This document shows positions 267-49,449 of a DNA stretch of 64,000 nt, piece after piece. Source of the DNA: Escherichia coli (GTDB lineage: Bacteria > Pseudomonadota > Gammaproteobacteria > Enterobacterales > Enterobacteriaceae). The notes beneath the pieces are model-generated. The model was not told the DNA's origin and searched no databases. It saw only the letters and a list, made by a program, of their open reading frames with translations. The position numbers and the translations under genes are program-made. The DNA lies in NCBI RefSeq assembly GCF_044647545.1, contig NZ_CP172818.1; one strand, given 5' to 3'. The first letter of the stretch is position 1; the number at the start of each line of letters is the position of its first letter.

Positions 267-1649
267 CTAAAGACTGGCTTTCCAGAGTTCAACACGGTTT
301 CTACCTCGTCTTTTGGCGATATACAGAGCTTCATCGGCTATTTGAATGAGGCGCTCATAGTCAGGATGACCATTAAACATGGCGGCACCGATGGAAAGTG
401 AGAGGGCAATATCCTCGCCGTTTGCGGCTTTCAGTTTGGTTTTCTCCACCCGACTGCGAATACGTTCTGCGGTACGTAACGTTTCGTTTTCCGAAGCTTC
501 AGTCAAAACAATGATAAATTCATCGCCACCGTAGCGGAAAACATAATCACTACTGCGGACGTTGTCATAAAAGGCCTGAGAGACTTTACGCAGAATTTCA
601 TCGCCAGTGTTATGGCCCCACGTATCGTTGATCTCTTTGAATTTATCAACGTCAATAATCAGCACTGACAGCGGTGTACCGGTCCGGTTGGCATGGGCAA
701 TTTCGCGTTTGAAGATCGTCGGCAGGAAACGACGGTTAAGTAATTTCGTCAGGACATCCATACCGACTTCGTGGCGCGATACTTCTTCAAACAATTCACG
801 CAGCAAGGTAATAATTTGCGATACGGTATTTCTTATCTGTAATAAAAATTTCACCCGTAAACTTCTGTTATTCAAATTCCTGGTGTTACGCATGGTTTGA
901 TTGAAAATACCGTCGAAATCCTGAATCAGACGGGAGATATGGCCCACTTCGGCAATGCCGCTAAAATAATGTCGACCTTTATGGTTAAACCACAGGCCAA
1001 AATCAGCCTGGCTTAAAGGCAAACTACTGCCTAAATCAGAATCCAGCAGGACTTTATAGATAATATCTATTTCCCATGAAAGTATTGAGGCTATTTGCCG
1101 TTCTTTTTCTTCTTCGGCATTTTCCAGTAACGAGAAGATACGATAGTTTTCATCTTCCTTTGAGGCACTACTGTCACTAAAGGTAAACGCGCGGGTCATC
1201 ACTTCCATAGCGATATCAATACTGTTAATAGAGAAATGGTAGACCTGAAGTTTTTCTGCGGCGGAATAATCCGAAGAGAAGATGACCGGATAGAGGATTT
1301 TTTTCAGCACCCGAAACCCCATCTCGACAATTTCTACCGGAATTCCTATGCGGGCATGCACTTCCGCGACGGTATGCTGGATTTGTATTAGCCTTTCGAC
1401 ATCGTCAACCTGGGCAGAAAGCACGTTAATAATCCAGCGTTCCATCGCACTTTTCAACTGCCGCTCAACTTGTTCATTACTCAAGAATTCTTCGGCATGT
1501 GGGTCGATACGGACAATTCGATAAAACTCAATACTCAGATAATGAGCATGCGCAACGGCAATTTCCGCGGCTTTAGCACGAATGAGCGGATCTGCTTGTT
1601 CGACAAGCCCGGTCCACTCATCTTTCATTCTTTTAAAATACATCTCCAT
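267..1649 (-). CDS. dosC: globin-coupled diguanylate cyclase DosC (DgcO), 460 aa
   Basis: 460-aa ORF with C-terminal GGDEF domain (RYGGDEFIIVL) and N-terminal sensor region; synteny with dosP and yddW. Confidence 0.9.
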   Translation of the reverse strand: MEMYFKRMKDEWTGLVEQADPLIRAKAAEIAVAHAHYLSIEFYRIVRIDPHAEEFLSNEQVERQLKSAMERWIINVLSAQVDDVERLIQIQHTVAEVHARIGIPVEIVEMGFRVLKKILYPVIFSSDYSAAEKLQVYHFSINSIDIAMEVMTRAFTFSDSSASKEDENYRIFSLLENAEEEKERQIASILSWEIDIIYKVLLDSDLGSSLPLSQADFGLWFNHKGRHYFSGIAEVGHISRLIQDFDGIFNQTMRNTRNLNNRSLRVKFLLQIRNTVSQIITLLRELFEEVSRHEVGMDVLTKLLNRRFLPTIFKREIAHANRTGTPLSVLIIDVDKFKEINDTWGHNTGDEILRKVSQAFYDNVRSSDYVFRYGGDEFIIVLTEASENETLRTAERIRSRVEKTKLKAANGEDIALSLSIGAAMFNGHPDYERLIQIADEALYIAKRRGRNRVELWKASL

Positions 1650-2024
1650 AATTCACACCCTTATAAGGCTGGGAAAGCAGACGGAATCAAAACGAAACGC
1701 AACGTGCGAGATCGACTAACTGCACCATACTCTCCTGAAATATGAAGATATACTGAAAACAAATAAGCGACTTAGGACAGTTTCAATCTACGCTACTGTT
1801 CTTCAGAAGAGTATAGCCCATCGTAATTATTTTTCGGTGACAGCGAATATCGTATGTTTTTTCATGTTCATACATTTTTATTAGGGGATTTATGACTGTT
1901 TAACTAAGTGTGGTTAATTGCGTAGTTAATTTGACTTAAGTAAGCATGATTACTAGTGGGATATTTCAAGAGGGTAACAAGCCGGGGGGAAAGCACCGGC
2001 TTGTTACAAAGTAAGAATGGGAGT

Positions 2025-3344
2025 TTAACTGCCCCAACGACTTTGCAGATAGCTGACCGCTTGTTGAGTCTGTGGCTTATTCAGATAGTCCTCACGGAAC
2101 AAGATTGTGCCGCTAATTTCTGGCACGGCATCGTTAAGATCGAGCTGCTTTTTCAGTTCCGGTACGCCGCCGTTAATCATCCAGTCTGGCTCTATCTTTG
2201 AAGGTTCACCCACTTTATAGAAGGCGATACCGATATACAGGCGGGTCCTGGTCGGTTTAACGACATCCGCCCACCATTTTGCCAACACGTCATAACGTGC
2301 GGCACTCCGTGAGAACGGCCAGTAAATTTGGGGAGCAATGTAATCCAGCAACCCTTGTTCCACCCATCGACGGGTATCAGCGTAGGATTCGTCATAGGCT
2401 GCCGCGCCTCGGGTATCGGAACCGAGCGGATCGTGTGATCGGTTACGCCACACGCCTGCCGGGCTAACGCCAAATTCGACTTCCGGCTTAATGCTTTTAA
2501 TGGTGTGCGATACCTTCGCAATTAACTGCTGAGTATTGTTGCGCCGCCAGTCTGCTTTTGACGCAAATGCGCCGCCGTATTTGCGGTACGTTTCGTTATC
2601 ATTTAGCCGTGAAGCTGGTGACTCAGTATAGAAATAGTCGTCAAACTGCACGCCATCTACCGGATAGCGGGAAACCACTTCTGCGACTATTGATGTGATC
2701 CAGTCCTGAACCTCAGGGATGCCCGGGTCGAGGACAAAGCGATCGCCGGACGTTCTGATCCAGTCGCGGTGTTGCACATAGACGCTGGCCGGTTGTTGAG
2801 ACAGGGTGCTATTCAGTTCCCTGATAGTACCGGGCTTCGTATTAACCGATACGCGATAGGGGTTAAACCATGCGTGTACTTTCATCCCACGCTTGTGGGC
2901 TTCGTCGAGCATGAATTGCAGCGGATCGTAACCCGGATTTTCACCAATCTTACCGGTCATAAGATCGGACCACGGCAAAATTTTCGATGGCCACAGGGCG
3001 GTACCATCCGGCTTGACCTGAAAAAAGACCGTGTTTATGCCGAGACGTTGCAGATGATCCAGTTTGTCGATCATCGCCTGTTGTTGTACACGGGCCCGGC
3101 TGGTGGGGTTACTAATGTTAACCGAGGAAAGCGGTGGCCAGTCGAGGCGAGACACCGTGGCCAGCCAGATGCCACGCATCGGTTGTGACGATTGTTGCGT
3201 CGTGGCTGGTGGCTTTGAACCCGCTGGTGGTGTCACCATGGACTCTGGAGGCGTGCTTTTACAACTACACAGTAAAAGTGCCAGTGCAACCAGTATCGCT
3301 GGTCTTCTAATCGCTAATTTCTCGTTTCGGGAGCAGATATCCAT
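2025..3344 (-). CDS. yddW: lipoprotein YddW, glycoside-hydrolase-like family, 439 aa
   Basis: 439-aa ORF with signal peptide and lipobox-like LLLCSC near N-terminus; position between dosC and gadC matches K-12. Confidence 0.8.
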   Translation of the reverse strand: MDICSRNEKLAIRRPAILVALALLLCSCKSTPPESMVTPPAGSKPPATTQQSSQPMRGIWLATVSRLDWPPLSSVNISNPTSRARVQQQAMIDKLDHLQRLGINTVFFQVKPDGTALWPSKILPWSDLMTGKIGENPGYDPLQFMLDEAHKRGMKVHAWFNPYRVSVNTKPGTIRELNSTLSQQPASVYVQHRDWIRTSGDRFVLDPGIPEVQDWITSIVAEVVSRYPVDGVQFDDYFYTESPASRLNDNETYRKYGGAFASKADWRRNNTQQLIAKVSHTIKSIKPEVEFGVSPAGVWRNRSHDPLGSDTRGAAAYDESYADTRRWVEQGLLDYIAPQIYWPFSRSAARYDVLAKWWADVVKPTRTRLYIGIAFYKVGEPSKIEPDWMINGGVPELKKQLDLNDAVPEISGTILFREDYLNKPQTQQAVSYLQSRWGS

Positions 3345-3420
3345 ATGTGCTGGTTTCCGGTAAACAGATGTGCGCTCATTCTCGTACTTATCCCGGTTAA
3401 GTCAATACGACAGCAAGCAC

Positions 3421-3449
3421 GAAAAAGGGAGCGATGAATTATCGCTCCC
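3421..3449 (-). terminator. rho-independent terminator downstream of gadC
   Basis: Inverted repeat gggagcgat / atcgctccc with 5-nt loop, followed on the minus strand by a T-run; sits just 3-prime of the gadC stop. Confidence 0.5.
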
Positions 3450-3474
3450 TTATCTTATAACCATTCAGACATGG

Positions 3475-5010
3475 TTAGTGTTTCTTGTCATTCATCACAA
3501 TATAGTGTGGTGAACGTGCACGCGGGTGCAGGAAGAAGTGACCTTTTGGTGCGTTCTGACTGTTGATTGGCTCCAGAGTAACGCCGGTATTCCCTTTGCC
3601 TTTACGATCATGAACAGCATAGAGAATAAAGGGCAGGGCAAGTACCACCAGGAAACTCACGACCAGTAATTCAACATACATATCAGTAGAGTCACCCTGG
3701 ATGTTATCCGGCGGCAGGAAGGAAACAATAAACGCCATAATTGAAGTCAGCAGACCGACAATAGCCACGACCAGTTTCACCCCTTTACCACCAGGGATAT
3801 TAAATGTGCGTTTTAAGTCAGGATGTTTAAGAACCAACACAATGTAGCCAATAAACAGCATGAAATAAGCACACAGATAAATCACCACCGTCAGCGCCAG
3901 TGCGATCAGGAAGGACATGTTGTTACCGCCACCGGTATTGGTGAGGATGATCAACGCGATAGAAGTAATCACCAACTGCGAAATGACCAGCGTTACCGGT
4001 ACGCCATTTTTGTTCATTTTAGCGAATGCCGCTGGCAGCAGGTTTTTCTGCGCTGTGACATACATCCCGCGAGAAGGACCAACAATCCAGGAAGCGATTT
4101 CCGCCAGAACACCCAGCAACAGCAGTGCGGAGATCACGCGAACCGTCCACTCAATTTCCGGTGCCACATGTGACATCAGAACGGTAAAGGTTTGCATTAC
4201 CCCTGCGGAGAGGTTGATTTCATTACCCGGAATGACCATCGCAATAGACAAACCGCCAACAGAGCTTAAGCAGATTGCCGCCACCATCAGCAGTAACATA
4301 GCCAGTGGATAGTCGCGCCCGGGGTTGCTCATTTCATTGACGTGGGTTGCGGAAGCTTCAACGCCCATATAACTCAAAATGAAGGCAACAAATACAACCA
4401 GAGTGCCCACTTTAGAGAAGTCAGGGAAGAAGGTCTTCGCATCCATTTCGATAGCAACGGGGGCACCGGAGTGCAGATAAATAGCCGCTAATGCGATCAA
4501 AATAAATGCAGGTAACAGGATACCGGCGAAGAAGCCAACTTTAGCAATTCGCGCCGTGTATTTCGTGCCACCAAACTGCGTTAATGCCAGCGCCCAAAGA
4601 ATGATGAGTGCTGCAATAGTTTTGGTAATGGGGTCTTCATTCAGCGCTGGCCATTTCAGGATGTAGGAGAGTGCCCCTAACACGAAATAGAGCATCGGAA
4701 TAAAACCAATGGCGATTTGCAGATAGCCAAATGAGATCGCTGCAAATCCCCATCTCGGCCCCAGAGTATTTGATACCCAGGCGAAGACGCCACCTTCTTC
4801 CCAGCCGTCGACGGTAGCCATTTCCGCAGCACAAAGTCCCACGGGAATAAACCATAAAATCCCGCCTAATAGCAGGAAGAAGACTAATGAAAAGCCCGAT
4901 GTTGCGAAGGTAGGGTATTCATAAACAGCCATTACCATCGATGCCGTTATGGCAAAGAATCCGAGTAATGTGAGCTGCTTAGCTTTACCTGTCTGTACTG
5001 ATGTAGCCAT
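3475..5010 (-). CDS. gadC: glutamate:GABA antiporter GadC, 511 aa
   Basis: 511-aa highly hydrophobic multi-pass ORF (APC-family-like) immediately downstream of gadB. Confidence 0.9.
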
Positions 5011-5165
5011 ATTATCCCCCTAAAACGGTATTCCTGTCGGAACCGCACCTGTTTTGTTCTGAAGCGTATTCAGAACAATATTTTCCGTTGCTAATGCCAG
5101 TGAACAGACTTTGGAAATTGTCCCGAAACGGGTGTGTTTCGGGACACCGTTACCGTTAAACGTTA

Positions 5166-6566
5166 TCAGGTATGTTTAAAGCTGTTCTGCTGGGCAATAC
5201 CCTGCAGTTTCGGGTGATCGCTGAGATATTTCAGGGAGGCTTTGTAGTCTTCCAGCAACAGTTCAGCAAAGTCCATTTCGAAGCCGCGACGACACATAAT
5301 GCGCATCACCACGATGTCAGTGGCTTCACCGCCGAGAGTGAAGGCCGGAACCTGCCAGCCGCGCAGACGCAGACGTTCAGAGAGGTCGTAGAGGGTGTAT
5401 CCCGGATCTTCACCATCTTTCAGTTTGAAGCAAACCGCTGGGATGCCTTCGTCCGGGCGACCGGTACAGATGAACTCATACGGCCCCAGTTTGGCGATTT
5501 CATCCGCCAGATAGGCAGCAACCTGGTAGGAAGCGTTCTGTACTTTGGTATAGCCTTCACGACCGAGGCGCAGGAATTCATAGTACTGTGCAATCACCTG
5601 ACCCGCCGGGCGGGAGAAGTTGATGGCGAAAGTCCCAATCTGACCACCGAGATAGTCAACGTTGAACACCAGTTCCTGCGGCAGCGCTTCTTCATCACGC
5701 CAGATAACCCAGCCGCAGCCTAGCGGAGCCAGACCGAATTTATGGCCTGAAGCACTGATCGATTTCACACGCGGCAGGCGGAAGTCCCAGACGATATCCG
5801 GGGCGACGAACGGTGCCAGGAAGCCACCGCTGGCGGCGTCGATGTGCATGTCGATGTCGATACCGGTGTCGGCCTGGAATTTATCCAGCGCATCGTGCAG
5901 CGGCTGCGGGAACTCATAGTTACCGGTATAGGTCACGCCGAAAGTCGGCACCACGCCGATGGTATTTTCGTCGCAGGCTTCAATCATGCGTTTCGGGTCC
6001 ATAAACAACTGACCGGGGCGCATAGGGATCTCACGCAACTCCACATCCCAGTAGCGGGCGAATTTATGCCAGCAGATTTGTACCGGACCGCACACCAGGT
6101 TTGGTTTATCCGTTGGCTTACCTGCAGCTTCCATACGCTTGCGCCAACGCCATTTCATCGCCATCCCGCCAAGCATACAGGCCTCGGAAGAACCAATGGT
6201 GTTGGTGCCAACGGCCTGACCATTTTTCGGTGCAGGCGCATGCCACAGATCGGCAACCATGTTTACGCAACGCAGGTCGATGGCTGCAGATTGCGGATAT
6301 TCTTCTTTGTCGATCCAGTTTTTGTTAATGGATAAATCCATCAACTTGTGGACATTTTCGTCGTCCCAGGTCTGGCAGAAAGTGGCCAGGTTCTGACGAG
6401 CGTTGCCATCAAGATATAATTCGTCATTGATAATCTGAAATGCGACATCGTCGCGCATTTCGTGCAGCGGAAAACGTTTTGATTCTGCGATAGTGGAAAT
6501 AGACTTTGCACCAAAACGTGAATCGAGTAGTTCCGACCTTAAATCCGTTACTTGCTTCTTATCCAT
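5166..6566 (-). CDS. gadB: glutamate decarboxylase GadB, 466 aa
   Basis: ORF track gives 489 aa; trimmed to internal start [21 protein letters not shown] (466 aa) which matches the recalled GadB N-terminus; PLP-dependent decarboxylase motif [10 protein letters not shown] present. Confidence 0.9.
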
Positions 6567-6645
6567 TTTAAACTCCTTAAAATGATTGGATCGCATTAAA
6601 AAAGTAGGATTTATCGATAAAGTAAGCAAGTGCAAAGGACTCGTG

Positions 6646-6665
6646 TTTAAATAACAAAATCCTAA
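6646..6665 (-). promoter_or_regulatory. GAD box (GadE/GadX-GadW binding element) in gadB promoter
   Basis: Reverse complement of 6646-6665 is TTAGGATTTTGTTATTTAAA, the 20-bp GAD box consensus, about 80 nt upstream of the gadB start codon. Confidence 0.75.
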
Positions 6666-7173
6666 TGTTATTTATCGTGAGATATTGCGTGAATAATATT
6701 TTTTCATTGAAAAACAATATAGTAGGGAGCTATTGGGTGGTGGCAAGGTGTTTTATGCTGTTATTTTTATGTGCATTCTGTGCCTCCTGAATTATCACGT
6801 AAAAATCAGACCTTAAAATATCATTATTAGTACGCGGTTATTTACTTTGAACGCATTTATAAAATTATTACATAAAAATAGCGAATATTGCTAAAATCCC
6901 CGCCAACGATGTGTTGACGGGGCTGTGATTATTTTGGCAATAATACCCCGGCATAAGTATTTACCGGATGAGAAAGATATTGTTTAACGCGTTAAGGGGG
7001 GGGGGAGTGAATGTCATTCTCGAGCTCTTTATTCGCTGCCGCTCCGCAAACAGTAACCTTCCACCTTCTCCCATCCACCACCGGCCCCTCGCCTCGTAGC
7101 CGGCCGGCGAGCCCCGGCAGCCAGCATGGTCTCTGCCGGGGTACGGGTGTGGTCAGGCCCCTACTGCCCTCTG

Positions 7174-7364
<191 letters not shown>

Positions 7365-7439
7365 TCAGGCAGGGGGGGGAAACCGAGTAATAATGGGATA
7401 TAAGGTAATGGTGAAAAAAGGATAAACGAAAAATAAGAA

Positions 7440-9150
7440 AGTCTATGTATGAATACGCGCTGGAACCCATGCGGTGGCCTGCCTGCAATTTGCTAAATGT
7501 TGGCTTCAGTTAACTTTATCGTTGAGTAGATAATGTAATTGTCTTGGATAGAAAAATGTGATGTAAATGTCTATATTAAAAAGATTTTAGGATGAAAATA
7601 AACTTGATGATTAAAAAAGGCTAAAAGTAAACTAGAATGAAAATTACCAATGTAACATATAAAAATGGTGAATAAACTGATAAGGTGGGAGGAAGAAAAA
7701 TAATGATAGGAATGTGCTATTCATAAATAATATCGGGTCGGTGAGAATTGATAAATTATATGTATCCGATAGATAAAAAATGATAAACTAAGAGGGTAAT
7801 GGAATTAGTATAATGAGGTAAGTAAAATAATTGATATGATCAGAGTGATGGCTGCTATCATGAAAAGTAGTTACTGAATTATGGTCTGTAAGGTATGTAG
7901 CTCTGGGGGCATAAATTAAATAAAAGAAACTATGTTCTGAGAAAAGAAATTATTATTAATAAAATGCATTGTGTAATGATAAAAATAGTTTTTGGCCTGC
8001 ATAGCGTTGTTGATAGTGAATAATTTAGGAAAAAATAGGCCAGCAGAGTGGGTTCCCTGGTCGCGCTGTCTTTGTTTGATGAACTCTTTCAGAGTGCTGT
8101 CATCATCATTTTTCATGAGTAAACTGCGACTCTTTTCAAGGTAAAAACAGTAATCAATTTGAGATTAATTGAAAACTGGAGGGCTGGCTCCTGCATTCTG
8201 CTCCTGCCGGGCTTTTTGATTTGTTAATTTTGATTTATTGTAGGGTGGCTGGCTGCTGTGATAAACTCTTTAAGCTTGCATCTTTTAACGACCTGCGGAT
8301 TGGGGGGCAAGGTTATTTTTGCTTAGATCGTGTTGTAGATAACTGATGTTTTCTACTGTATAGAAAGGAATAATCGTTTTACGTATAGAATTGGCTTAAG
8401 TCTGTGTTGGGGTTATGCGGGTAATTTGACTGATGGGAAAAATTTGGGTAATTTCAGAATGGAATATTTCTGTAAACAGTGAGAATAAGAGGTTATCAGG
8501 TAGATTTTTATGTGGCTGCTTTTTTATCTGCAACAGGGCAGCAAGGAAACGCCATCAGCTTAAGGTCTTTGGAATGCTGATATGGCTGATAAGAGCTGTA
8601 GGTAAAATCATTGGGAAATAGCTGTATAATTACGGGTGAAGTCACAATAAAATTGGGGTGTGAGTGCGGATAGGTCTGACTTTAAGCCTGCCGAGCGGCA
8701 AGGACATCGATAACGCACATTATGGAGGTAAAGAGAATAATTGTATGATACTGTCCGTCAGTTGTCGAGAATGCGTAACCTGATAAGAATAGGAAGCGTA
8801 GTAGTTACTTACTCAGATAATGCTTTGATTGATCAGGTGAGGATTATTTGGCAGGTCGGAGCTTTAAGCAGGTAGCTTGGCTGGTGTGTGGCGATAGTGT
8901 TGGTGTGCGTGGGGTTGAAGTTGGGTGCCTTGGGGTGTGTTGGTGGGGGTGTCTTGGAAGTAAGAGAGAAAAAGTGGGTGAGTGAAGTAGTAAAAGAGAA
9001 GAGAAGAAGGGAAAAAGTAAAGGTTAAGTAATTGAAAAAATGAATAAAATGAGAAAATGGAATTGAGATAAAATAATATGAAAGGTTATGAAATGATAAA
9101 TATGTGATGAATGTATTATTTATTAATAAATATATCGCCTAAAAACAACG
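7440..9150. other. cytosine-depleted, AT-rich low-complexity non-coding block
   Basis: Plus strand is almost entirely G/A/T, with G/T-rich and G/A-rich stretches; no credible ORF, RBS or RNA gene; occupies the position of pqqL-yddB-yddA-ydeM-ydeN in K-12. Confidence 0.8.
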
Positions 9151-9203
9151 CGGGGCAGGGAATGACTGCATTTAATTTTTAGTAGGGTGCGTGGTGACTC
9201 TCG

Positions 9204-9974
9204 TTAGCAAATAATCAATCCTAAAGCACTCATCGTGTTGTCCGTGTTCATACCGGTGTGCCTTTGACAACGGTACTCCTTAGAAACTCTCTTTGGACTG
9301 TTGCCGAAATGTTTGCGGAACGCATAAATAAAATAAGATGTACTCGCATAACCACATTGTTCGGCAATTTTATTGACTGAACCTTCTACGCGTATCAAAT
9401 TTTTTGCGTGCTGCATTCTGGCATCTAAAAGAATCTGTGAGAATGTCGTTTGCTCTTGCTTTAGTTTTTTCTTCAACAGGCTTTCACTGATGTACAGGCA
9501 GTCACAAATATCTTTCAGCTTCCATGGGTGCGCCAGCTTCATGTTGACAATATTTCTCACTTTCCCGGAAACGGATAGCACACCGTTAGTTAATAGTGTA
9601 ATGAAACCTTTGCATGCGGCAAAAATAGACAGGCAAGAAAAAAGCAAAAGTTCTGAAAAATTATGATGATTGCGTTCTTCCGAGTTGAGATAAGCAATCA
9701 TTTCATTAAGCAATCCAGTCGGTACATTTGAAGCACGTAAAAACTTCGCAGGAACAGGCACCGTCACTGTCTGAATGTTAGTGCATTGTAGATATTTTTT
9801 AATGGTATTTTCATTAAATCCGATTTCTTTGAAATGCCGCTCATAAGGTTCAAAATGCGTACGAACAGCGTTATCTACCATCAGGATCTCGCCGTCAGAG
9901 AAGGCGTAATCTTTATCTAAAATGTTAGCGTTGAAGGCATGATGAATAAATATAACAGAACAAACGAGCGACAT
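9204..9974 (-). CDS. ydeO: AraC-family acid-resistance transcriptional regulator YdeO
   Basis: 256-aa ORF with C-terminal AraC-type HTH; directly downstream of safA and ydeP as in the K-12 safA-ydeO operon. Confidence 0.8.
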   Translation of the reverse strand: MSLVCSVIFIHHAFNANILDKDYAFSDGEILMVDNAVRTHFEPYERHFKEIGFNENTIKKYLQCTNIQTVTVPVPAKFLRASNVPTGLLNEMIAYLNSEERNHHNFSELLLFSCLSIFAACKGFITLLTNGVLSVSGKVRNIVNMKLAHPWKLKDICDCLYISESLLKKKLKQEQTTFSQILLDARMQHAKNLIRVEGSVNKIAEQCGYASTSYFIYAFRKHFGNSPKRVSKEYRCQRHTGMNTDNTMSALGLIIC

Positions 9975-15145: not shown

Positions 15146-16294
15146 TTAGCGACAGATTGCTGTCTGCTGGTTCAGTAAGGTACCAGGAGAAACTTCAGGA
15201 AGCTTGTACTCGACAATACAGTTTGAGTTTTTATCTTTGCCCCATGAAACCTGTAATTTCCCTGACTGTGGAAGTCCAGTCAGATAAACCTGACCGTTTT
15301 CCGCGACAATGCTGCCATTTTTATTCTGTCCATGTGTGACAATTGCACCGAATGGAACGCTCTTATTACCGTACTTCAACGTCATTAATACTTTCCCGCC
15401 GATTTGTGCATTAAATGTTGCTCTGGCAATAGCACCGTGAGTTGGGATGACAGTGACAACGGTTTCATCCAGTTCAACATTATCTGCAAGGGAATTCGCG
15501 TTAAGAGCGACACGATTTTCTCTATATTCTGTCGCAAATGGTAATATGGCATAGCCACGCCAGTCGGTATGAATACCGGTCTGGTTCTCTATTTTGACAT
15601 TATCAGCGCCAGGAGCCTTAACCAGAACCATTGTGTCGCCCAGCGGCTGTCCAAAGGTGATGCCATCAGCATGAGCAATAATGCCACCACTCATTCCGTA
15701 ATAAATCTGGCTGCTGTCACCACTCCGACTGTAACCGATATTCGTATTACCGTAAGCTCCACGATAATTAAGAGAACTGTAACCACTGGTGCCAGACGAT
15801 GTATTACCCCCGTGGGTGTTACCGACCTGAACACTATAATTCAGGTTATTATCCGGCAGCAGAGTGCCATAAACTCCCGATAGATTGGTCATGCCGCCTT
15901 TCAAATCGTTTGACATACTGTAACTGGCGTTTGAGTTACGAAATGTCGACTGACTGTCTGTACGCATCCAATGACTGAAGGGAACATTAAGCGTAAAAGC
16001 AAGTAAATGATCCCGATCGTTTTGCCATATATTATTGGAATAGCTGTAATTCAGCGAAGTCGTAATATCACTAAACGGCACATTTAATCCAAATGATATT
16101 TGCTGGTCGCTGCGTGACGTGTTCCAGTAACTTTGGCGACTGGCACTGAAAAATGTCGTACCGTAATTTCCAAGCTGCTGAGAGATGCTTATTTGTTCCT
16201 GACCACGCTTACTGTAGAACAGATTAAAATAATCAATAAATTGTGTCTGCTCATTGCTGTCTCCGGTAGGAGGCTTGACGGTGTAACCACTCAT
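15146..16294 (-). pseudogene. ydeT: fimbrial usher C-terminal fragment (ydeT)
   Basis: 382-aa ORF resembling only the C-terminal third of an outer-membrane usher (full ushers are about 850 aa); no chaperone gene and no usher N-terminus upstream. Confidence 0.7.
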
Positions 16295-16546
16295 TCGACT
16301 GTAGGCACTGTCGGATAAGTTATAAAAACCTTGCGTAGAATAGCGATATCCTGCGACCTGGATATTGGTTCCACAACAAGTTTATTGCAGCACTTGTTGA
16401 AGAGAGTATTTGCAAAGACATTTTATGTCGCTAAATAACATGACGATTTCATTATGCATGTTATTTATAAACCGTGACTAAACAGAATATTATTGCGAAC
16501 AAGGGAAGTGTCAGGAAAGGTCAAGAGCGACCAATGGCTTATATGG

Positions 16547-16975
16547 CTATAAATCATTAGCTATAGTTAATGTTTGCCTGGTGTAACTAACACGGAATTG
16601 CTCTAAACAGATAAGTGCAGGGTTTATTAAAGCTGACCGACAGACTTTCTTAACCTGGTAATATCTCTCAGGTGACTCTCCAAACATCCGCGAATATTCC
16701 CGACAGAAATGGGATAAGCTTTCGTAACCGACAGCATAGGCTGCAGTGGTGACATCGTAATGTTCATTCAGTATCAGTCGCCTGGCTTCATTGAGGCGTA
16801 GCCATTTCTGATACCGGAGTGGACTCATTCCCGCAAGCTGTCTGAAGTGTTGATGGAAAGGGGGGCGTTCATTTGCACGCGGTTTGCCAGCCTGACTCTT
16901 CAACGCAGGGAAGATGCGGCAAACGGCAAACCTGCATACCAGCCAGCCTATATCCGGTATGCACAGGCCAATCAT
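16547..16975 (-). pseudogene. yneL: AraC-family regulator fragment (yneL)
   Basis: ORF contains only an AraC-type HTH region (…RYQKWLRLNEARRLI…GYESLSHFCREYSRMFGESP…) without a sensor domain; position matches K-12 yneL. Confidence 0.6.
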
Positions 16976-17159
16976 GAAAGAGGAGAGGCTTTATGTTCTG
17001 GAACCCTGAAGTAATAACGACGACCGGAAAATCGCTTCGCATCACTCAAATCCAATTTAACATAATATACATTATGCGCACCAACATAAACCAAGGAAGA
17101 ATCCAGTCGTTGGCGGTCATGATTGTCCTGCTCATTAACAACGACCAAAACCCCATATC

Positions 17160-18482
17160 TTACTTAATACCGTATTCTCGGCTTAACCGGTCGTGCAACC
17201 TCAACACATTGGTTTCAACTGCCGTCACCACGTTCTCCGGAAAATCTGTCGGTAATGAAGTCTTCACGTTATCCAGTGCTGCTGGAATCATTCTGGCAAA
17301 GTCACTCAGGATTTCATGCATCTGCACTTCCGGGAATCTCAGCACCTTTGCTGTCGCCAAAAAATGTCGCGGATAAATTTTATCGATTGCCGTTTTTTTG
17401 CCTTTGGATGCGTTAAGCCCCATTGCCAGTTTGAGATCGCTGATGTGTATTCCCGTACCGCCAAGGACCGGAAATGCTGAAATGATGTCGTAAAATGGCG
17501 TGAGTCGATAACTGCCGCCAGCCTGAATAAATACGGAGAAGTTTTTTGCATGACCGTCCGTTGCGCCAATCAACCACTGGAAGACCTGGAATTTCATAAA
17601 ATCATAGCGATCTTTCAGCGCCTCGCTGGACCCCATCAAAAAAGCCATGATCCGCGCGATGCCTGGGCCTCCATCTGATTCATATTTCACCGATGAAGGT
17701 AAACCGAATGTCTGACACATATCCTCCTGTGGCAAGCGAAGTAAAACCGTTCGCTCAGCATTCCAACGCCTGTCAAAACGTTCGACCGCTAACGCGCGCA
17801 CATTTCCCGCTTTAATGATTTCTGCGTCCGGAACATTCAACCCAAGTTCTTTCGCCAGCAGCAGACAGTAATACTCATTATCAACGCTTTGGCTGAGATC
17901 GAGCGTCGCATTGGGCTGCCTGATTTCGCCAATCGGTAATTTAATGATGTGCGTCGTCGGCGTTATTCCTTTCGGAATGCACCAGTCATTGCCTATTCTG
18001 AGCAGTGCTGTCTTCTCCTGTGCGCCAGCAACCGAGATGCGAAAGTCATTTTCTTCTCTAATCATGCCTAGCGGGATATCTGCTTTATAAGCCGTTAATA
18101 CTTCTTCAAGTCTGGCTTCAGTAAGCTTTTCCCATGCCATTATCGGATGCGTTACGGTTTCGTCTTCGGGTATTAACGTCACGGCACCAACGCTGTCTCG
18201 CCCTATTTCTGACAATAAATCAAACGGTTGTCTGGATTTGGCATGATAACGTTTAACGATCCGGTCACGTACAATCGGGCTATCGGGTAACAGGTTATCG
18301 AAGAAGTTAAATACGGCATCAGAGGTGATATTCCCCCTCTGCAATGGCAGCGAAAGTGACAACGGTCTGGCATAACGGCTTGCTAACCACTCCGGTGCAT
18401 ACTTAAAGGTGTGCGCGCCGTTGGCTAACTTCGTTAACTCGCCTACCCGCTGGTTGTTCATCCAAGTGACAAGTTTAGGCAT
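17160..18482 (-). CDS. hipA: HipA serine/threonine kinase toxin, 440 aa
   Basis: ORF track 459 aa; trimmed to MPKLVTWMNNQRVGELT start (440 aa) whose ATG overlaps the hipB stop by 1 nt. Confidence 0.9.
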   Translation of the reverse strand: MPKLVTWMNNQRVGELTKLANGAHTFKYAPEWLASRYARPLSLSLPLQRGNITSDAVFNFFDNLLPDSPIVRDRIVKRYHAKSRQPFDLLSEIGRDSVGAVTLIPEDETVTHPIMAWEKLTEARLEEVLTAYKADIPLGMIREENDFRISVAGAQEKTALLRIGNDWCIPKGITPTTHIIKLPIGEIRQPNATLDLSQSVDNEYYCLLLAKELGLNVPDAEIIKAGNVRALAVERFDRRWNAERTVLLRLPQEDMCQTFGLPSSVKYESDGGPGIARIMAFLMGSSEALKDRYDFMKFQVFQWLIGATDGHAKNFSVFIQAGGSYRLTPFYDIISAFPVLGGTGIHISDLKLAMGLNASKGKKTAIDKIYPRHFLATAKVLRFPEVQMHEILSDFARMIPAALDNVKTSLPTDFPENVVTAVETNVLRLHDRLSREYGIK

Positions 18483-18748
18483 TACCACTCCAGATTTTGC
18501 TGTTCTGTTGATTCTGGCGAGGCATTTTTCGCGTCGCATAGCGTCATTGAGAGTTCAAGCGACTGTAAAATCTTAAAAAATGTCGTGAGCGTGGTATTGT
18601 CAGGGTTGTTTTCGAAATTGGAAATCGTCGCCTGCTTAATACCAATTTTTTTCGCCAGCTCGCTCTGCGTCCAGCCATTTTGCTGGCGAACCAGTTTCAT
18701 TGCATTCGCCAATTGCGTTGGGCTATAGATCTTCTGAAAGCTCATCAT
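18482..18748 (-). CDS. hipB: HipB antitoxin, HTH-XRE DNA-binding protein, 88 aa
   Basis: Trimmed to MMSFQKIYSPTQLANAMKLVRQQNGWTQSELAKKIGIKQATISNFENN... (88 aa); helix-turn-helix motif; immediately upstream of hipA. Confidence 0.9.
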   Translation of the reverse strand: MMSFQKIYSPTQLANAMKLVRQQNGWTQSELAKKIGIKQATISNFENNPDNTTLTTFFKILQSLELSMTLCDAKNASPESTEQQNLEW

Positions 18749-18959
18749 GTCATACGTCCACAGCAAGTTTATCCGCTTAAGGGGATATTATAAGTTTTAT
18801 CCTTTAGTGAGGATAAGTCAATCTGGAAACACATCTTATCCGCTCTACGGGATAAACGCTGCGATATCCGCGATCGCGGATAAAAAGGAGGATTTAAAAG
18901 TCGTTTGAAGTCGGCAATATTAAGCCGCATGCATCTTCGACATGCGGCTTATACGGTTT

Positions 18960-21900
18960 ACCAGCTATATTTCACACCCAGCATGCCCTGAGTATCGCTA
19001 TAGCCTTTATCACCTAGTTGCACACCGACATTCCCCCACAGGCTAAGGTTGTTATTTACTTTCGCCTCAACCCCGGTACGTACTTCACCGAGATTACGCG
19101 CACCATCACGGCTTACGGTTTGACCATTCATCTTCACGGCGTAGACTTTGCTGTTGTTGATCCAGTTCGCTTCAATGTAAGGCTGGAACTCACGCTGTTT
19201 ACCATTGTCACGCTGGTGTAGTCGTCAGCAGAACGGTTATCGGAACTGACGCTGTTATCAAACCAGTTATACAGCGCCCAGCTGTCAACATAAGCGCCGG
19301 TCTTATTCGCATCGTTCTGATACCAGGTCGCGTACAGTCCTGCGCTGTAACCGCTGATGCGCCCATCCGATTTATAACCCACATGATTACTCTGAGTATT
19401 ACTGTGCTGATTGGCATAGCCTGCCATGACGCCGAGATGCCAGCGATCCTGCGCGTTGCTACTCCACTGCGCCAAATCGCCGCCCTTGCCATATTAATGG
19501 CAGAGTCGGAACCGAAAGCAATTTCCCCCCCACGATATCCGTCGTACCCTGATACGCCGCGGAATCGTTGTTAAGAGTCAGGATCCCGGTACCCAGTTTT
19601 GTCACATCACCGCTACCGCTGATACTGTGCGTCATCGCCCAGCTACGCTCAGTGGAGATGGTGAGCAGGCCATTATTGATAACGGAAGCATCACCCAGGT
19701 TTTTCTGCTCGTTGACGCTGAGCGCGCTGCCTGTATCAATGTTGAATTGCCCCACAAAGCGGCTATTATCGCCATCCAGCTCTACATCTGTCCTGGCGGT
19801 TGCGCTCACGATACCCTTCCCGCTTATGCCATTGCGCAGTTCGCCAGTCACGTTTTTTAGCGTTAACAGACCGTTATTGGCAATATTTCCGCTGCCTAAC
19901 CCCTGCGTATTATCGAGGCTGACTTCCGCATTTGGGCTAATGCTGGTTAACGCATTGTAGCGTGCATTAAGCCCCTCGATAGCCAGCGTTCCCCCTGTAA
20001 CATTCAGGTTTCCGCCACCTGTCAGTTCACCCTGACTGATCCCACCTTTATTTACCGTCAGCGCCCCCTCTTTGAACAAAACAGTCGAACCCATCTGCCC
20101 GGTGAATGTCTCTACCGTCTGCGTCGATCCATTAAGATCGACGATGGCCGCGTTGCTGATGTTCAGTTCCCGGGTGTTGCCAAGTGCACCATCCGCATCG
20201 GTACGTAATGTCCCCATCTGAACGTAGGTTGCCCCCTGATAGTCGTTCTGAGCGTTGGAAAGCGAAACCTGTCGCACCGTATTGATTGCCAGATCCCCTT
20301 CACCACCGATTTTTGCCGACATATCGGCCGTTGCGCCATAGGCTCCGCCATGTTCGGCTAACGTCAGCTTTTGCCCTCCATGGATGTTCAGCGCTTTCAG
20401 CCCATAGTTAACGTACAAACCATCACCTGGTGCGGTCGTGAGGCGGAATCCATAATCACCCTCGGCGACCACCGTTCCGTTTTGCGCAATGTGTAACGTT
20501 TTGTCCGCTTCCACCTCGTCGCCCTGTAAATCACGTAACGTTAATGAGCCACCCGACCCAATAACCGTTTGCGCCTTCACCAGTTGAACGCCGACATGGC
20601 TATCATCGTGTTCCAGCAAATTGAGCGTCGTCAGAGGGTTATTCGCCATGGGATCATTCCACGGTTTAGGCACGTCGATAAGCACGTCGCCCGTCCCGTT
20701 TACCTTATAGTTACGGCCTTTCCAGGTGTAGTCACTCGCGCCGACAACCAGCGTATCGACGCTGATATATCCCTCTGCAAGCGTCGCAGCAGGAATATCC
20801 GTATCGAAAATGAGCGTACCGCCATTCATGGCCAGTCCACCAATGGATTGCTCTCCCACGTTTACCGATGTGGTATTTTCAATGTCAGACTGCAACATCG
20901 CGTGAGTAAGCGCAGCGGTGTTGTCGCGTTCCAGAGTGAAGGTACTGTCTTTCAGTTGGGCAACACCGGCGAATTCAGTCCCTGTTGCATGGGTAAAGCC
21001 AAACATCTTGTCGGAGGATGACAGCTGCACTCGCATCAAGCCATCGCCTTTGAGCGCATTGGTCAGCGTGTAATCTCCTGCGCTGTTCGTTGATGCGAGA
21101 ATGTCGAGCGTACCGGGGCTTGCAATGGTGACTTCACTCGAACCCATGCCTGTTACCCCATCTGCCGTATGTGACGCAATAGTCAGGAGGCCGTCATTGA
21201 CCAGCGTTTTACCGCTATAAGTATTCCCTGCATTGAACACCGTATGGCCTGCATCATGCATCACTTTTCCGTCTTTATCGTCACCCGTAATCAGCATATC
21301 GACCTGGTAGCCGGCATCACTGTTATTGGTATGATTAAAGACAAAAACGCCTTCGCCAAGACCAAACTCCACTTTCGTCGCATTGGTAATAAACCCGGCA
21401 TCTGCCGCTACCTCACCGTGAGCAGCACCAATGTTTAGCGTTCCTACAGCAGGCTCAAAAACACCTAAGTAAACTTCTCCACCTTCGACATTCAGCGTGC
21501 CGTTATTCGTCAGGGTTAACGTACCTGTGCCAGTCGTCCCTACGTTCATATTGAATGTTTCAAGAAGAGAGTTCTGCCCATCCACCCGCACGTCGCCCTT
21601 ACTTTTGTCATTCAGAGCTATCTGTGTATCACGCGCTTTAACTATACCTCCGGTGGTAATATTCAGTTCACCCGTGCCTAATACACCGACCTGTAGCAAT
21701 TGGGCGTTAGTAGATGACGTTTTTAAATTCCAGAGACTATGCGTTGAAATATTAACTATCCCCTTACCGGAGGCATTTCCTCCGATAAATCCATAGCCCG
21801 TTGAATTAAGGGTGGCACCATTACTGACATTTACGATGCCGCTACCAAAATTACCGACATTGATACCTACAGTATCGAACGATGATGTCGCATCCATCAG

Positions 21901-36171: not shown

Positions 36172-37119
36172 TCAGACAACTTCCTCACCGTAACGCATAG
36201 TGCTGGTACGGTTGCGCCCATCTTTCTTCGAGCGATACAGACATGTATCGGCTTCGACCATCAATTTATTAAAGTCATCGGTCAGCGTTCGGTACGATGC
36301 GCAACCACTACCGACGCCAATACTTACCGTGAGATAAAGCGTTTTTTGTTGCCAGGTGAACGGTTGCAGTTCAACGCCTTTACGGATTTTTTCCGCCATT
36401 AGCAGACCATCGACAGGATTCACCGATGGCACTGCAACAGCAAATTCCTCGCCGCCCATTCGCGCCACCAGCCCCTTATCACCGACAATCTTCTGAATAT
36501 GCTGGGCAAACACGCTTAACACTTTATCGCCACATTCATGTCCATAGTTATCGTTAATGCTTTTGAAATAGTCGATATCAAGCAGCATGACAGTCAGATG
36601 TTGTGTCTGTTTCAGCGATGGACTTTTCAGCGCCTCATAAAGACCGGACCGTGAGTAAACCTGAGTCAGAAAATCAAAGTCGGCTCGCAGCGCAACTTGC
36701 TTCATTAGCGAATTGATCGCTGCCACGCTAAAAGAAACCATAATTGGGCATATCGCCATCGTGGCAATACCGAGACGTGCGGAGAACATTTCTGGAATGG
36801 AGAATGGCGAACCGACCGAGATATCAATCACCGAATTTGCCACCAGTACGATTTCCACCGCACCGGTGACAAAGGTCAACAGACATGTTACCTGCGGCGT
36901 ATAGCGCACTGCACACCAGATTAATGCAGGCAGCGGGAACGCCAGACTCCCCGCTCCGCCAATGACTACCGAGGCAATAACCGACACAATAAGCGCGATG
37001 GCGGGCATCATCTGTTCTGCTTTAAAGCGCGGCAGCACTCCCGGAATAGCCAACGTCAGCATACAAGGCACGATCAACACGCCCGTTGAGAATTGCTCAC
37101 TGAACCAGTCCGCAAGCAA
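36172..37119 (-). CDS. dgcF: membrane-anchored diguanylate cyclase DgcF (YneF), 315 aa
   Basis: N-terminal TM segments plus GGDEF-type domain with degenerate-looking motif RMGGEEF. Confidence 0.85.
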   Translation of the reverse strand: MLADWFSEQFSTGVLIVPCMLTLAIPGVLPRFKAEQMMPAIALIVSVIASVVIGGAGSLAFPLPALIWCAVRYTPQVTCLLTFVTGAVEIVLVANSVIDISVGSPFSIPEMFSARLGIATMAICPIMVSFSVAAINSLMKQVALRADFDFLTQVYSRSGLYEALKSPSLKQTQHLTVMLLDIDYFKSINDNYGHECGDKVLSVFAQHIQKIVGDKGLVARMGGEEFAVAVPSVNPVDGLLMAEKIRKGVELQPFTWQQKTLYLTVSIGVGSGCASYRTLTDDFNKLMVEADTCLYRSKKDGRNRTSTMRYGEEVV

Positions 37120-37199
37120 AGGCCAGAAATCCAGACTATCAATACTGACCGAACCAATCCCCCAAATACCATAATAATCGGCAATCAGACAGTAATTAA

Positions 37200-37500
37200 A
37201 TACCTAACACTTACTCTCATACTTATTTTTCCCCAAACCTTATCCCCACGACCAAACGACAAAAATAAACATCATATAGAAATTGATACCAGAAACCCCC
37301 CCATCTTTACACATAAACCACACCCACAAACGACGCAAGAAGACGATAAACCAAAAAAGAAAACCCCCCAAACGAAAAAAAAAAAAAGGAAAACCAAAAA
37401 AAAAAAAAAAAAAAAAAAAAAAAGAAAAAAAAAAGAAAAAAAAAAAAAAAAGAAAGGGAAAAAAATAAAAAAGAAAAAAAAAAAAAAAAAGATAGCATGT
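37200..37500. repeat. A/C-rich low-complexity block with long poly-A runs
   Basis: Plus strand nearly devoid of G/T from about 37200, then A-runs up to about 27 nt punctuated by single G (37376-37490); yields Lys-rich/Phe-rich spurious ORFs. Confidence 0.9.
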
Positions 37501-37563
37501 TCGCTGACAGCGGCGGCAAATAAAGATACCTAATGAATGCCATTTTATCGATTTCCGTAATTA

Positions 37564-37923
37564 TCATGGCTGATTCATCTGTATAACCAGCCAGTGATAG
37601 ATTACCGTCACAATATAACGTTGTTGCTCCTCACTTAACGCTTCCCCTTGAGGAATGTTATGCCACTTAGCCAGACAACCGCGACAACAGGTCGCGGTGG
37701 CGTGTTGAGCGATAAAAACCGGATGCCCGCGCATGGGGGTTTGCTTACCGTCGTTAGCCGGTAATGCCGGAGCAAGACGTTTAGCGACAAAATCCGCCGC
37801 ATGTTGTTCGATGACTGGCGCACCTTTCTCCAGACAATACTGACGCTCTTTCATGCCCAAACGAAAGCGAGAGCGAAATTTTGAACGGGATAAACGCGCG
37901 AAGAGTGGATCGAGAGACTGCAT
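37564..37923 (-). CDS. yneG: uncharacterised protein YneG (DUF4186), 119 aa
   Basis: 119-aa ORF whose start codon overlaps glsB stop by 1 nt; synteny. Confidence 0.8.
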   Translation of the reverse strand: MQSLDPLFARLSRSKFRSRFRLGMKERQYCLEKGAPVIEQHAADFVAKRLAPALPANDGKQTPMRGHPVFIAQHATATCCRGCLAKWHNIPQGEALSEEQQRYIVTVIYHWLVIQMNQP

Positions 37924-38849
37924 TAATAAACTGAACGCCCTAATTGTTTCGTCAATTGTTCAAGGACAGCAATGCCCGCAAGCGAGTTACCGGCATCATC
38001 CAGTTCCGGGCTCCAGACTGCGATGGCCATTTCATGCGGAACAATCGCCACAATACCGCCACCAACGCCAGATTTTGCCGGTAGTCCCACCCGCCAGGCA
38101 AACTCCCCCGCGTTCTGGTACATACCACTGGTCGCCATCAGCGCGTTAATTTGCCGCGCCTGCATTGGCGTCACCACAGGTTCATCAATATGAATAGCTT
38201 TACCCTGATTAGCCAGAAAGACAAACGTCCGGGCCAGCTCTACACAGCTCATTTTCAGAGCGCAGTAATGAAAGTAGTTTTGCAGAACGGTTGTCACATC
38301 ATGATGGAAATTGCCAAACGACTTCATCAGCCAGGCGATAGCCGCATTTCGCGCGGAGTGTTCAAATTCGGAACGCGCTACCACCGTATCGTAGGAAATA
38401 TCAGACACACCGCTTAAGCCGCGCACGACTTCCAGCATACGTTGCCGAGGAGCGCTTAATCGCCCTTGCAACATATCGCAGACCACCAGCGCACCGGCAT
38501 TAATAAACGGATTACGCGGAATACCCTGCTCCATTTCCAGTTGCACTAAAGAATTGAACGGTGATCCAGACGGATCTTTGCCGACGCGTTGCCAGATTTC
38601 CTCTTCGGAGTAATGACGCATGGCGACAACGAGACTCAGCACTTTGGAAATAGACTGAATGGAAAAACGTTCTTGCGCGTCTCCGGCCTGAAAAAGCTGT
38701 CCGTCAACGGTACAGATAGCAATCCCCAATCGGGAACCGTCTACCGTAGCCAGCGCCGGAATATAATCCGCGACTTTACCCTGACCAATGAGCGGCCGCA
38801 CTTGCCGCAAGATGTTTTCTAAAATTGCATTATCCATGGCGACTGCCAC
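37923..38849 (-). CDS. glsB: glutaminase 2 GlsB (YneH), 308 aa
   Basis: 308-aa serine-dependent glutaminase-family ORF; synteny. Confidence 0.85.
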
Positions 38850-45587: not shown

Positions 45588-45806
45588 ATGAAACCACTTT
45601 TATCCGCAATAGCAGCTGCGCTTATTCTCTTTTCCGCGCAGGGCGTTGCGGAACAAACCACGCAGCAGTTTGTTACTTCCTGTGCCAATGTCGTGGTTGT
45701 TCCCCCATCGCAGGAACAACCACCGTTTGATTTAAATCACATGGGTACTGGCAGTGATAAGTCGGATGCGCTCGGCGTGCCCTATTATAATCAACACGCT
45801 ATGTAG
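45588..45806 (+). CDS. marB: periplasmic protein MarB, 72 aa
   Basis: 72-aa ORF with signal peptide, third gene of mar operon. Confidence 0.85.
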   Translation: MKPLLSAIAAALILFSAQGVAEQTTQQFVTSCANVVVVPPSQEQPPFDLNHMGTGSDKSDALGVPYYNQHAM

Positions 45807-45836
45807 TTTGTTCTGGCCCCGACATATCGGGGCTTA

Positions 45837-46736: not shown

Positions 46737-46930
46737 TCTACCGCCTCTGAATTTCATCTTTTGTAAGCAATCAACTTAGCTGAATTTACTTTTCTTTAAC
46801 AGTTGATTCGTTAGTCGCCGATTACGACGGCATTAATGCGCAAATAAGTCGCTATACTTCGGATTTTTGCCATGCTATTCCTTTACATCTCTAAAACAAA
46901 ACATAACGAAACGCACTGCCGGACAGACAA

Positions 46931-48118: not shown

Positions 48119-48244
48119 TTTAAGTCGAACACAATAAAAATTTAATTCAGCCTTCGTTTAGGTTACCTCTGCTAATATCTTTCTCATTGAGATGAAAATT
48201 AAGGTAAGCGAGGAAACACACCACACCATAAACGGAGGCAAATA

Positions 48245-48340
48245 ATGCTGGGTAATATGAATGTTTTTATGGCCGTACTGGGAATAATTTTATTTTCTGG
48301 GTTTCTGGCCGCGTATTTCAGCCACAAATGGGATGACTAA
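48245..48340 (+). CDS. mgtS: small membrane protein MgtS (YneM), 31 aa
   Basis: ATG at 48245: MLGNMNVFMAVLGIILFSGFLAAYFSHKWDD stop; below the ORF-track size cut-off; followed by an intrinsic terminator. Confidence 0.8.
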   Translation: MLGNMNVFMAVLGIILFSGFLAAYFSHKWDD

Positions 48341-48367
48341 TGAACGGAGATAATCCCTCACCTAACC

Positions 48368-48408
48368 GGCCCCTTGTTACAGTTGTGTACAAGGGGCCTG
48401 ATTTTTAT
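48368..48408 (+). terminator. rho-independent terminator of mgtS
   Basis: Stem ggcccctt / aaggggcc with 14-nt loop followed by TGATTTTTA. Confidence 0.6.
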
Positions 48409-48415
48409 GACGGCG

Positions 48416-48441
48416 AAAAAAAACCGCCAGTAAACCGGCGG
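48416..48441 (-). terminator. minus-strand rho-independent terminator (dgcZ transcript or 3-prime end of a small RNA such as MgrR)
   Basis: On minus strand: ccgccggtttactggcgg hairpin followed by TTTTTTTT; lies in the mgtS-dgcZ intergenic region where K-12 encodes the sRNA MgrR (strand and exact ends not verified here). Confidence 0.45.
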
Positions 48442-48558
48442 TGAATGCTTGCATGGATAGATTTGTGTTTTGCTTTTACGCTAACAGGCATTTTCCTGCA
48501 CTGATAACGGATCGTTGACACAGTAGCATCAGTTTTCTCAATGAATGTTAAACGGAGC

Positions 48559-49449
48559 TTAAACTCGGTGAATCACGTTTTGTTCGTCAATAAACATACA
48601 GCGATTTCTTCCGGTTTGCTTACCCTCATACATTGCCCGGTCCGCTCTTCCAATGACCACATCCAGAGGCTCTTCAGGAAATGCGCGACTCACACCTGCT
48701 GTCACGGTAATGTTGATATGCCCTTCAGAATGTGTGATGGCATGGTTATCGACTAACTGGCAAATTCTGATACCTGCACGACATGCTTCTTCATCATTAT
48801 CCGCTTTGACAATAATGATAAATTCTTCGCCCCCGTAGCGATAAACCGTTTCGTAATCACGCGTCCAACTGGCTAAGTAAGTTGCCAGGGTGCGTAATAC
48901 TACATCGCCGATTAAATGCCCGTAGGTATCATTAACCAATTTAAATCGGTCAATATCCAACAACATTAAATAAAGATTCAGAGGCTCAGCGTTGCGTAAC
49001 TGATGATCAAAGGATTCATCAAGAACCCGACGACCCGGCAATCCCGTCAAAACATCCATATTGCTACGGATCGTCAGCAAATAAATTTTGTAATCGGTTA
49101 ATGCCGCAGTAAAAGAAAGCAACCCTTCCTGAAAGGCGTCGAAATGCGCGTCCTGCCAGTGATTTTCAACAATAGCCAACATTAATTCCCGACCACAGTT
49201 ATGCATATGTTGATGGGCAGAATCCATTAGCCGAACGTAAGGTAATTCATCGTTATCGAGTGGCCCCAGATGATCAATCCACCGACCAAACTGGCACAGT
49301 CCATAAGAATGGTTATCCGTTATTTCTGGCTTACTGGCATCTCTCGCGACCACGCTGTGAAACATACTTACCAGCCACTGGTAGTGGGCATCGATAGCCT
49401 TATTGAGATTTAACAAGATGGCATCAATTTCCGTTGTCTTCTTGATCAT
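48559..49449 (-). CDS. dgcZ: zinc-regulated diguanylate cyclase DgcZ (YdeH), 296 aa
   Basis: Trimmed to MIKKTTEIDAILLNL start; C-terminal GGDEF domain (RYGGEEFIIIV) and N-terminal zinc-sensory region. Confidence 0.9.
   Translation of the reverse strand: MIKKTTEIDAILLNLNKAIDAHYQWLVSMFHSVVARDASKPEITDNHSYGLCQFGRWIDHLGPLDNDELPYVRLMDSAHQHMHNCGRELMLAIVENHWQDAHFDAFQEGLLSFTAALTDYKIYLLTIRSNMDVLTGLPGRRVLDESFDHQLRNAEPLNLYLMLLDIDRFKLVNDTYGHLIGDVVLRTLATYLASWTRDYETVYRYGGEEFIIIVKADNDEEACRAGIRICQLVDNHAITHSEGHINITVTAGVSRAFPEEPLDVVIGRADRAMYEGKQTGRNRCMFIDEQNVIHRV

Follow-up and report, generated by a model that had tools for sequence, protein, structure and literature searches.

Three diguanylate cyclase genes and a probable sequence-building artefact in dgcF within an ST648-type Escherichia coli sequence

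The stretch of DNA analyzed here, referred to as the window, comprises 64,000 nucleotides (nt) of one strand of an Escherichia coli contig (NZ_CP172818.1, assembly GCF_044647545.1). It contains three genes for GGDEF-domain diguanylate cyclases, dosC, dgcF and dgcZ, which belong to the cyclic di-GMP (c-di-GMP) signaling genes of this species, and the first codons of the phosphodiesterase gene dosP (Table 1). The window is collinear with the genome of E. coli K-12 from position 1565492 onward, and would represent the dosC-to-Qin stretch of a sequence type 648 (ST648)-type chromosome (phylogroup F) in its normal, conserved gene order. In two places the sequence gives way to degenerate tracts. One of these, the “poly-A” tract, lies in dgcF and was very probably produced in the building of the sequence rather than by any biological process.

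Table 1. Coordinates of the c-di-GMP genes, degenerate tracts and K-12-identical segment in the window.
Feature	Position	Strand	Description
dosP fragment	1-242	-	First 80 codons, heme-PAS N-terminus
dosC	267-1649	-	Intact, 460 aa; Pfam PF00990, PF21118, PF11563
Second degenerate tract	6990-9221		Same kind as the poly-A tract; no c-di-GMP gene
hipBA patch	17213-18975	-	Identical to K-12, ST648-type flanks
dgcF, readable 3′ part	36172-37159	-	988 nt: codons 145-472 of the full-length gene and stop
dgcF, mechanically called open reading frame	36172-37119	-	315 aa from TTG at 37119; GGDEF 142 bits
Degenerate “poly-A” tract	37160-37490		331 nt; from alignment to FDAARGOS_497 and K-12
dgcF-yneG intergenic region, distal part	37491-37563	-	Intact
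dgcZ	48559-49449	-	Intact, 296 aa from ATG; Pfam CZB and GGDEF

The proteins encoded by dosC, the dgcF open reading frame (ORF) and dgcZ all score above the curated cut-off of the Pfam GGDEF family (PF00990, 23.8 bits) and carry a canonical GG[D/E]EF A-site. No fourth GGDEF gene was found in the window by a six-frame motif search, and tblastn with the GGDEF domain of DgcJ recovered exactly these three genes. Searches with Rfam found no c-di-GMP riboswitches or related RNAs in the window. The order dosC-dgcF-dgcZ is the conserved E. coli order, present in both K-12 and the ST648 strain FDAARGOS_497.

DosC contains the Protoglobin (41 bits), DosC_2nd (167 bits) and GGDEF (173.2 bits) domains, has the proximal histidine H98 and is 99.6% identical in amino acid sequence to K-12 DosC. 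Its A-site motif is GGDEF; the I-site position, five residues upstream, is occupied by RSSD. The gene thus has the same globin/DosC middle domain/GGDEF architecture as in the known DosC-DosP module (DgcO/PdeO, yddV-yddU), and dosP begins 24 nt downstream of dosC, like in the known operon. Unlike the known module, however, the phosphodiesterase half is unrepresented. Only 80 of the 799 dosP codons lie in the window; their translation equals residues 1–80 of K-12 DosP and matches PAS models only, and the GGDEF-like and EAL domains fall past the window edge. The annotation of FDAARGOS_497 places the cut in dosP at the same position as this edge. Furthermore, tblastn with PdeD in all six frames (E ≤ 1) found no EAL domain in the window, nor is an EAL phosphodiesterase of the DosP/PdeO type encoded there. 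The content of the window is three cyclase genes and zero phosphodiesterase domains. In the proposed function of the operon, a heme-globin O2 sensor would drive the GGDEF domain of DosC, co-transcribed with a dosP of which the greater part falls beyond the window edge.

DgcZ carries a CZB domain and a GGDEF domain (151 bits) with the A-site motif GGEEF. It matched the NCBIfam equivalog model NF007380 with 519.5 bits (cut-off 256), covering positions 1–296 of the 296 in the model, and all four zinc ligands (H22, C52, H79 and H83) are present. The gene is in these respects the same as DgcZ (YdeH) of E. coli. The protein is 99.0% identical to that of K-12, from which it differs by A217D, V227I and N294H; these changes are conservative or polymorphic, common to ST648 genomes and structurally nothing new. 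A zinc-inhibited CZB domain would be expected to drive the GGEEF domain of this protein. The ΔyneF and ΔydeH mutants of CFT073, which correspond to dgcF and dgcZ, are complemented by WspR (PMC3484386). Directly downstream of dgcZ, as in K-12, Rfam placed the Hfq-binding small RNA STnc560 (48334–48547, minus strand), the MgrR locus in the K-12 annotation.

A preliminary description of this sequence had listed three cyclases and one phosphodiesterase. The cyclase genes were found where it had put them and with their GGDEF domains, but the phosphodiesterase did not hold, dosP being present as 80 codons with PAS matches and no EAL domain; the domain annotation that it had proposed as a check located GGDEF in three ORFs and EAL nowhere. 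Its assignment of O2 sensing to DosC agrees with the globin sensor detected by Pfam, and its assignment of zinc regulation to dgcZ with the CZB zinc-sensor domain and the equivalog match.

In most E. coli, dgcF encodes 472 amino acids, in which a hydrophobic domain of ~300 residues with about eight hydropathy peaks precedes the GGDEF domain. The readable part in the window is identical over its 988 nt to the 472-residue gene of FDAARGOS_497, which lies at 4066326–4067744 of NZ_CP033850.1, and encodes about five hydrophobic segments and a complete GGDEF domain; the protein from the ORF is 98.7% identical to that of K-12. Its A-site motif is GGEEF, and GDKG stands at the I-site position, which is thus without RxxD. 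The intact A-site and absent I-site are shared with full-length DgcF (YneF) of non-K-12 E. coli and Shigella, for example strains 55989, CFT073 and S. flexneri 2457T, in line with the published description of YneF (Richter et al., 2014, PMC4287979). The GGEEF motif had earlier been called degenerate. It is instead an active variant of the A-site (PMC4287979; table in PMC3484386) and conforms to canonical GG[D/E]EF, as does the same motif in DgcZ. Activity of orthologues has been published: Shigella DgcF makes c-di-GMP, raising its level in a GG-dependent manner (PMC11327459), and DgcF activity was also reported elsewhere (PMC3484386). In nature, a polytopic membrane domain of ~300 residues would drive a GGEEF domain without an I-site, and the hydropathy of the full-length protein supports the membrane anchoring proposed in the preliminary description. 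That dgcF is a characterized K-12 gene, as also proposed there, is contradicted by the literature: the K-12 allele carries a 5′ deletion, its start codon was misannotated as a result, and it is not expressed (PMC4287979, PMC5635695).

The window follows full-length dgcF exactly to position 37159, and perfect identity resumes sharply at 37491. The 331-nt string between these positions stands for 496 nt of the real locus, namely 431 nt of dgcF coding sequence (the N-terminal 144 amino acids) and 65 nt upstream. The preliminary description had reported that the region upstream of dgcF was replaced by a poly-A anomaly. The anomaly is present and is tied to dgcF, but its extent includes codons 1–144, so that the first third of the gene is lost along with the upstream sequence. 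The version in the window cannot encode the whole protein; the hydrophobic peaks at residues 22–40 and 92–110 are lost, and that at 132–150 is cut. Loss of bases through the tract is progressive: G is the first to go, with 0 of 6 retained within 50 nt, followed by T and finally by C, and A is kept at ~100%. This leaves runs of 13, 28, 10, 16 and 17 A, more than 80 nt in total.

The edges of the poly-A tract map to K-12 positions 1611892/1611891, coinciding within ~3 nt with the junction of the K-12 dgcF deletion. The boundaries of the 315-residue ORF are those of the K-12 annotation (b1522), and this ORF is a mere K-12-style remnant. The K-12 allele itself, in contrast, is a clean 498-nt deletion, whereas the window has 331 garbled nt between ST648-allele flanks. 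Measured between the stop codons of yneG and dgcF, the locus is 1392 nt long in the window, 1557 nt in its natural full-length form and 1059 nt in the K-12 form. Among 5426 complete E. coli genomes, none matched the tract, and the genuine 496-nt segment was present in 4197. A 36-mer spanning the poly-A junction was likewise absent from GTDB representative genomes and JGI metagenome contigs. A promoter scan of 36900–37950, a region that contains the artefactual tract, gave no sigma-70-like site. The 496-nt segment is described in the literature as deleted specifically in K-12 (PMC4287979, PMC5635695). In the genomes surveyed here it was missing from 1229 of 5426 (23%), a count that takes in any K-12 derivatives.

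The second degenerate tract replaces ~10.4 kb of the chromosome (pqqL-yddB-yddA-ydeM-ydeN), and pqqL, yddB and yddA are absent. Its edge at 6990 is sharp and lies 61 nt into the 3′ end of pqqL. Next come ~400 nt of C/G-rich sequence, in which uninterrupted G stretches reach 48 and 114 nt, followed by a copy of ydeM/ydeN from which 20–85% of the bases, chiefly C and T, are missing. The sequence recovers by 9221, just within the stop of ydeO, which is altered to encode 256 amino acids instead of 253; the garbled 256-residue YdeO was absent from the gene-call index. No match to the tract was found among the 5426 complete genomes, and 169 nt of its C/G-rich sequence had no E. coli match by blastn. 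Derivation of the C/G-rich positions 6990–7385 from pqqL was considered and rejected, as permissive alignment was meaningless and blastn against E. coli returned no match. From 6990 and 37490 the tracts point outward in the manner of two degraded tails of one block, an arrangement that fits contig-end and model-drift artefacts equally well.

Identity of the window to K-12 is only ~97.5%, with natural-looking substitutions (transition/transversion ratio 1.9; mismatches per kb over-dispersed, with mean 22.7 and variance 107). The DNA of dosC and dgcZ, on the other hand, is 100% identical to six ST648-type genomes (FDAARGOS_497, IMT16316, 1428, Ecol_881, MS6198 and ST648). Positions 1–6989 are 100% identical to FDAARGOS_497, and 37487–59548 differ from it in only three positions (37490 and a 2-nt indel at 50336); outside the defects, identity to this strain is 100% or 99.99%. 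Judged by these identities, the alleles are ST648-type rather than K-12, and the earlier statement that all of the genes are characterized K-12 genes does not fit them. A K-12 sequence with uniform synthetic mutations was ruled out by the over-dispersed mismatches, the transition/transversion ratio and the 100% ST648 matches. An unsampled divergent lineage, considered on account of best matches of 98.6–98.9%, was also rejected; these low values are due to the garbled tracts and the chimeric joins.

The segment containing hipBA departs from this pattern. It has 0 mismatches to K-12 in 1763 nt, where ~42 would be expected at 2.4% divergence, and its flanks differ from K-12 by ~2.5%. FDAARGOS_497 lacks exactly positions 17221–18830 of this segment. 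No complete genome matched 16950–19210 above 98.1%, and none contained 16000–19600 in one piece. This K-12-identical segment in ST648-type flanks marks the window as a K-12-templated chimera. At 16372, a 4.6-kb block of FDAARGOS_497 (fimbrial usher, chaperone and fimA::IS2) is missing, which gives the truncated ydeT of K-12 with ST648 alleles on both sides. Past pinQ, from 59548 to 64000, the window departs from FDAARGOS_497 and follows the order of the K-12 Qin prophage for the last 4.5 kb at 92–96% identity. The best match to this end among the 5426 complete genomes was 96.2%, and none matched it contiguously; a possible origin of this end is a consensus built from reads of paralogous prophages on a K-12 frame. 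As a natural chromosome the window therefore fails in several places, with both tracts, the hipBA joins and the Qin end unmatched contiguously by sequenced genomes.

Two small discrepancies with FDAARGOS_497, of 4 nt at 19485 and of 2 nt at 50336, fall precisely at junctions where ST648 has a deletion compared to K-12 (785 nt within the yneO autotransporter and 477 nt removing ydeJ, respectively). They are what imprecise deletion calls would leave and, together with hipBA, the truncated ydeT and the Qin order, count as signs of a K-12 frame. The other Rfam matches in the window were IS009 (59471–59668) and the cspA thermoregulator (63534–63951).

The most probable technical cause of the dgcF artefact, which we infer, is that data from an ST648 strain were laid onto a K-12 MG1655 scaffold. 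Under such templating, sequence absent from K-12 would be either dropped, as with the 4.6-kb fimbrial block, or garbled, as in the dgcF gap, and a segment that the ST648 lineage lacks, such as hipBA, would be filled with pure K-12 sequence. Several observations weigh against this explanation. K-12 and FDAARGOS_497 are collinear and ~98% identical at the second tract, with no structural difference there, and K-12 templating alone therefore does not explain that tract. Bases are lost in a different order in each of the two tracts, which a single simple instrument failure would not fit; a single hierarchy of dye or channel fading was ruled out on the same ground. Finally, the window reproduces three deletions with respect to K-12 (232, 785 and 477 nt) but not the 1.6-kb hipBA deletion, and an ad hoc size limit is thus needed in the presumed pipeline.

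The first alternative concerns the cyclase genes rather than the tracts. The window could be a true hotspot for c-di-GMP turnover, in which the three cyclases and DosP are functionally co-localized and dgcF is merely odd in its upstream region. Three GGDEF genes are indeed present and dosP begins at the window edge. For a pre-chosen 60.5-kb window, the Poisson probability of at least 4 such genes is low (P = 6e-4), and dgcF lies among the acid-resistance genes gadBC, ydeO, ydeP and glsB; in Shigella, dgcF has an effect on acid survival (PMC11327459). We nevertheless consider a hotspot unlikely. With 29 GGDEF/EAL genes placed at random on 4.64 Mb, 4 genes fell within 60.5 kb somewhere in the genome in 13% of simulations (scan probability 0.13), and when dosCP was treated as a single unit, three units did so in 64% (0.64). 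K-12 also has a denser set elsewhere (cdgI, dgcJ, dgcP and pdeD within 29.6 kb). Given these genome-wide frequencies and the denser K-12 set, the density is unremarkable, contrary to the preliminary description, in which the window was held to be unusually dense in c-di-GMP genes.

The arrangement of the genes argues against a hotspot as well. No EAL domain lies in the window, and the three genes are separate transcription units with unrelated sensors, separated by 35 kb and 11 kb in which numerous unrelated genes lie; only dosC and dosP are adjacent. The anomaly takes coding sequence of dgcF and not upstream DNA alone. The dosC-to-dgcZ interval is 49.2 kb in the window, compared to the 58.1 kb of K-12 and the 60.6 kb of FDAARGOS_497 (60.5 and 63.0 kb, respectively, when measured from the dosP start to the dgcZ end), and it is short only because the window lacks ~11.4 kb net. 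The description of all the genes as lying within 50 kb is thus accurate for the sequence as written, but the span has been shortened by missing sequence. Beyond their common product, nothing was found to link the three cyclase genes, which are not significantly enriched; they are neighbors only loosely, as part of a set of 29 GGDEF/EAL genes dispersed over the E. coli chromosome.

Slightly less probable still is that both tracts are machine-made in-fill or read-tail junk unrelated to K-12, from a collapsed generative or neural consensus model or from unpolished long-read ends at contig breaks, with the coincidence between dgcF and the K-12 junction arising because common genome variants branch apart there. 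In both tracts one edge is graded and the other sharp, the orientation being opposite in the two, as would be the case for two outward tails of a contig from 6990 to 37490, and such edges are also expected of a sequence model that drifts and then re-locks. The second tract does not lie at a K-12 difference and its C/G-rich 169 nt match nothing in E. coli, which would also fit. This account, however, leaves the K-12-identical hipBA, the K-12 ydeT junction and the K-12-ordered Qin end unexplained, and generation of the whole window by a model is excluded by stretches of 7–22 kb that are 100% identical to FDAARGOS_497.

A real lesion in a natural isolate, in which dgcF was independently pseudogenized at a fragile spot also lost in K-12 and in ~23% of complete genomes, is very improbable. 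The absence of the 496-nt segment from 1229 of 5426 genomes indicates that loss here recurs or is widespread, and K-12 dgcF is a known 5′-deletion pseudogene (PMC4287979). But no known mutational process removes G, T and C in turn and leaves each A in its order, homopolymers like those of A (13–28 nt) and G (48 and 114 nt) in the window were seen in none of the genomes, and the window is demonstrably chimeric. Least credible of all is that the homopolymer-ending tracts are real DNA of a living ST648 isolate, made by base-selective, template-skipping synthesis or repair that overwrote the 5′ end of dgcF and pqqL-ydeN, although, if true, this would add a new type of lesion that inactivates genes, at a locus that E. 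coli has lost repeatedly.

The biological weight of the finding is little. For dosC, dgcF and dgcZ, the sensors as well as the positions are already known from c-di-GMP signaling in E. coli, and they bring no new biology; the genes are textbook, in their normal order, and their proximity is not significant, as the low interest assigned in the preliminary description had anticipated. The window is better regarded as a quality-control case, a chimeric and in part garbled sequence in which ST648 alleles sit on a K-12 frame. Inferences from its gene content are unsafe, among them a truncated dgcF, a missing pqqL-ydeN region, the presence of hipBA or a compact 50-kb cluster, and annotating the 315-residue ORF as a K-12-type DgcF would repeat a known start-codon misannotation in this gene.

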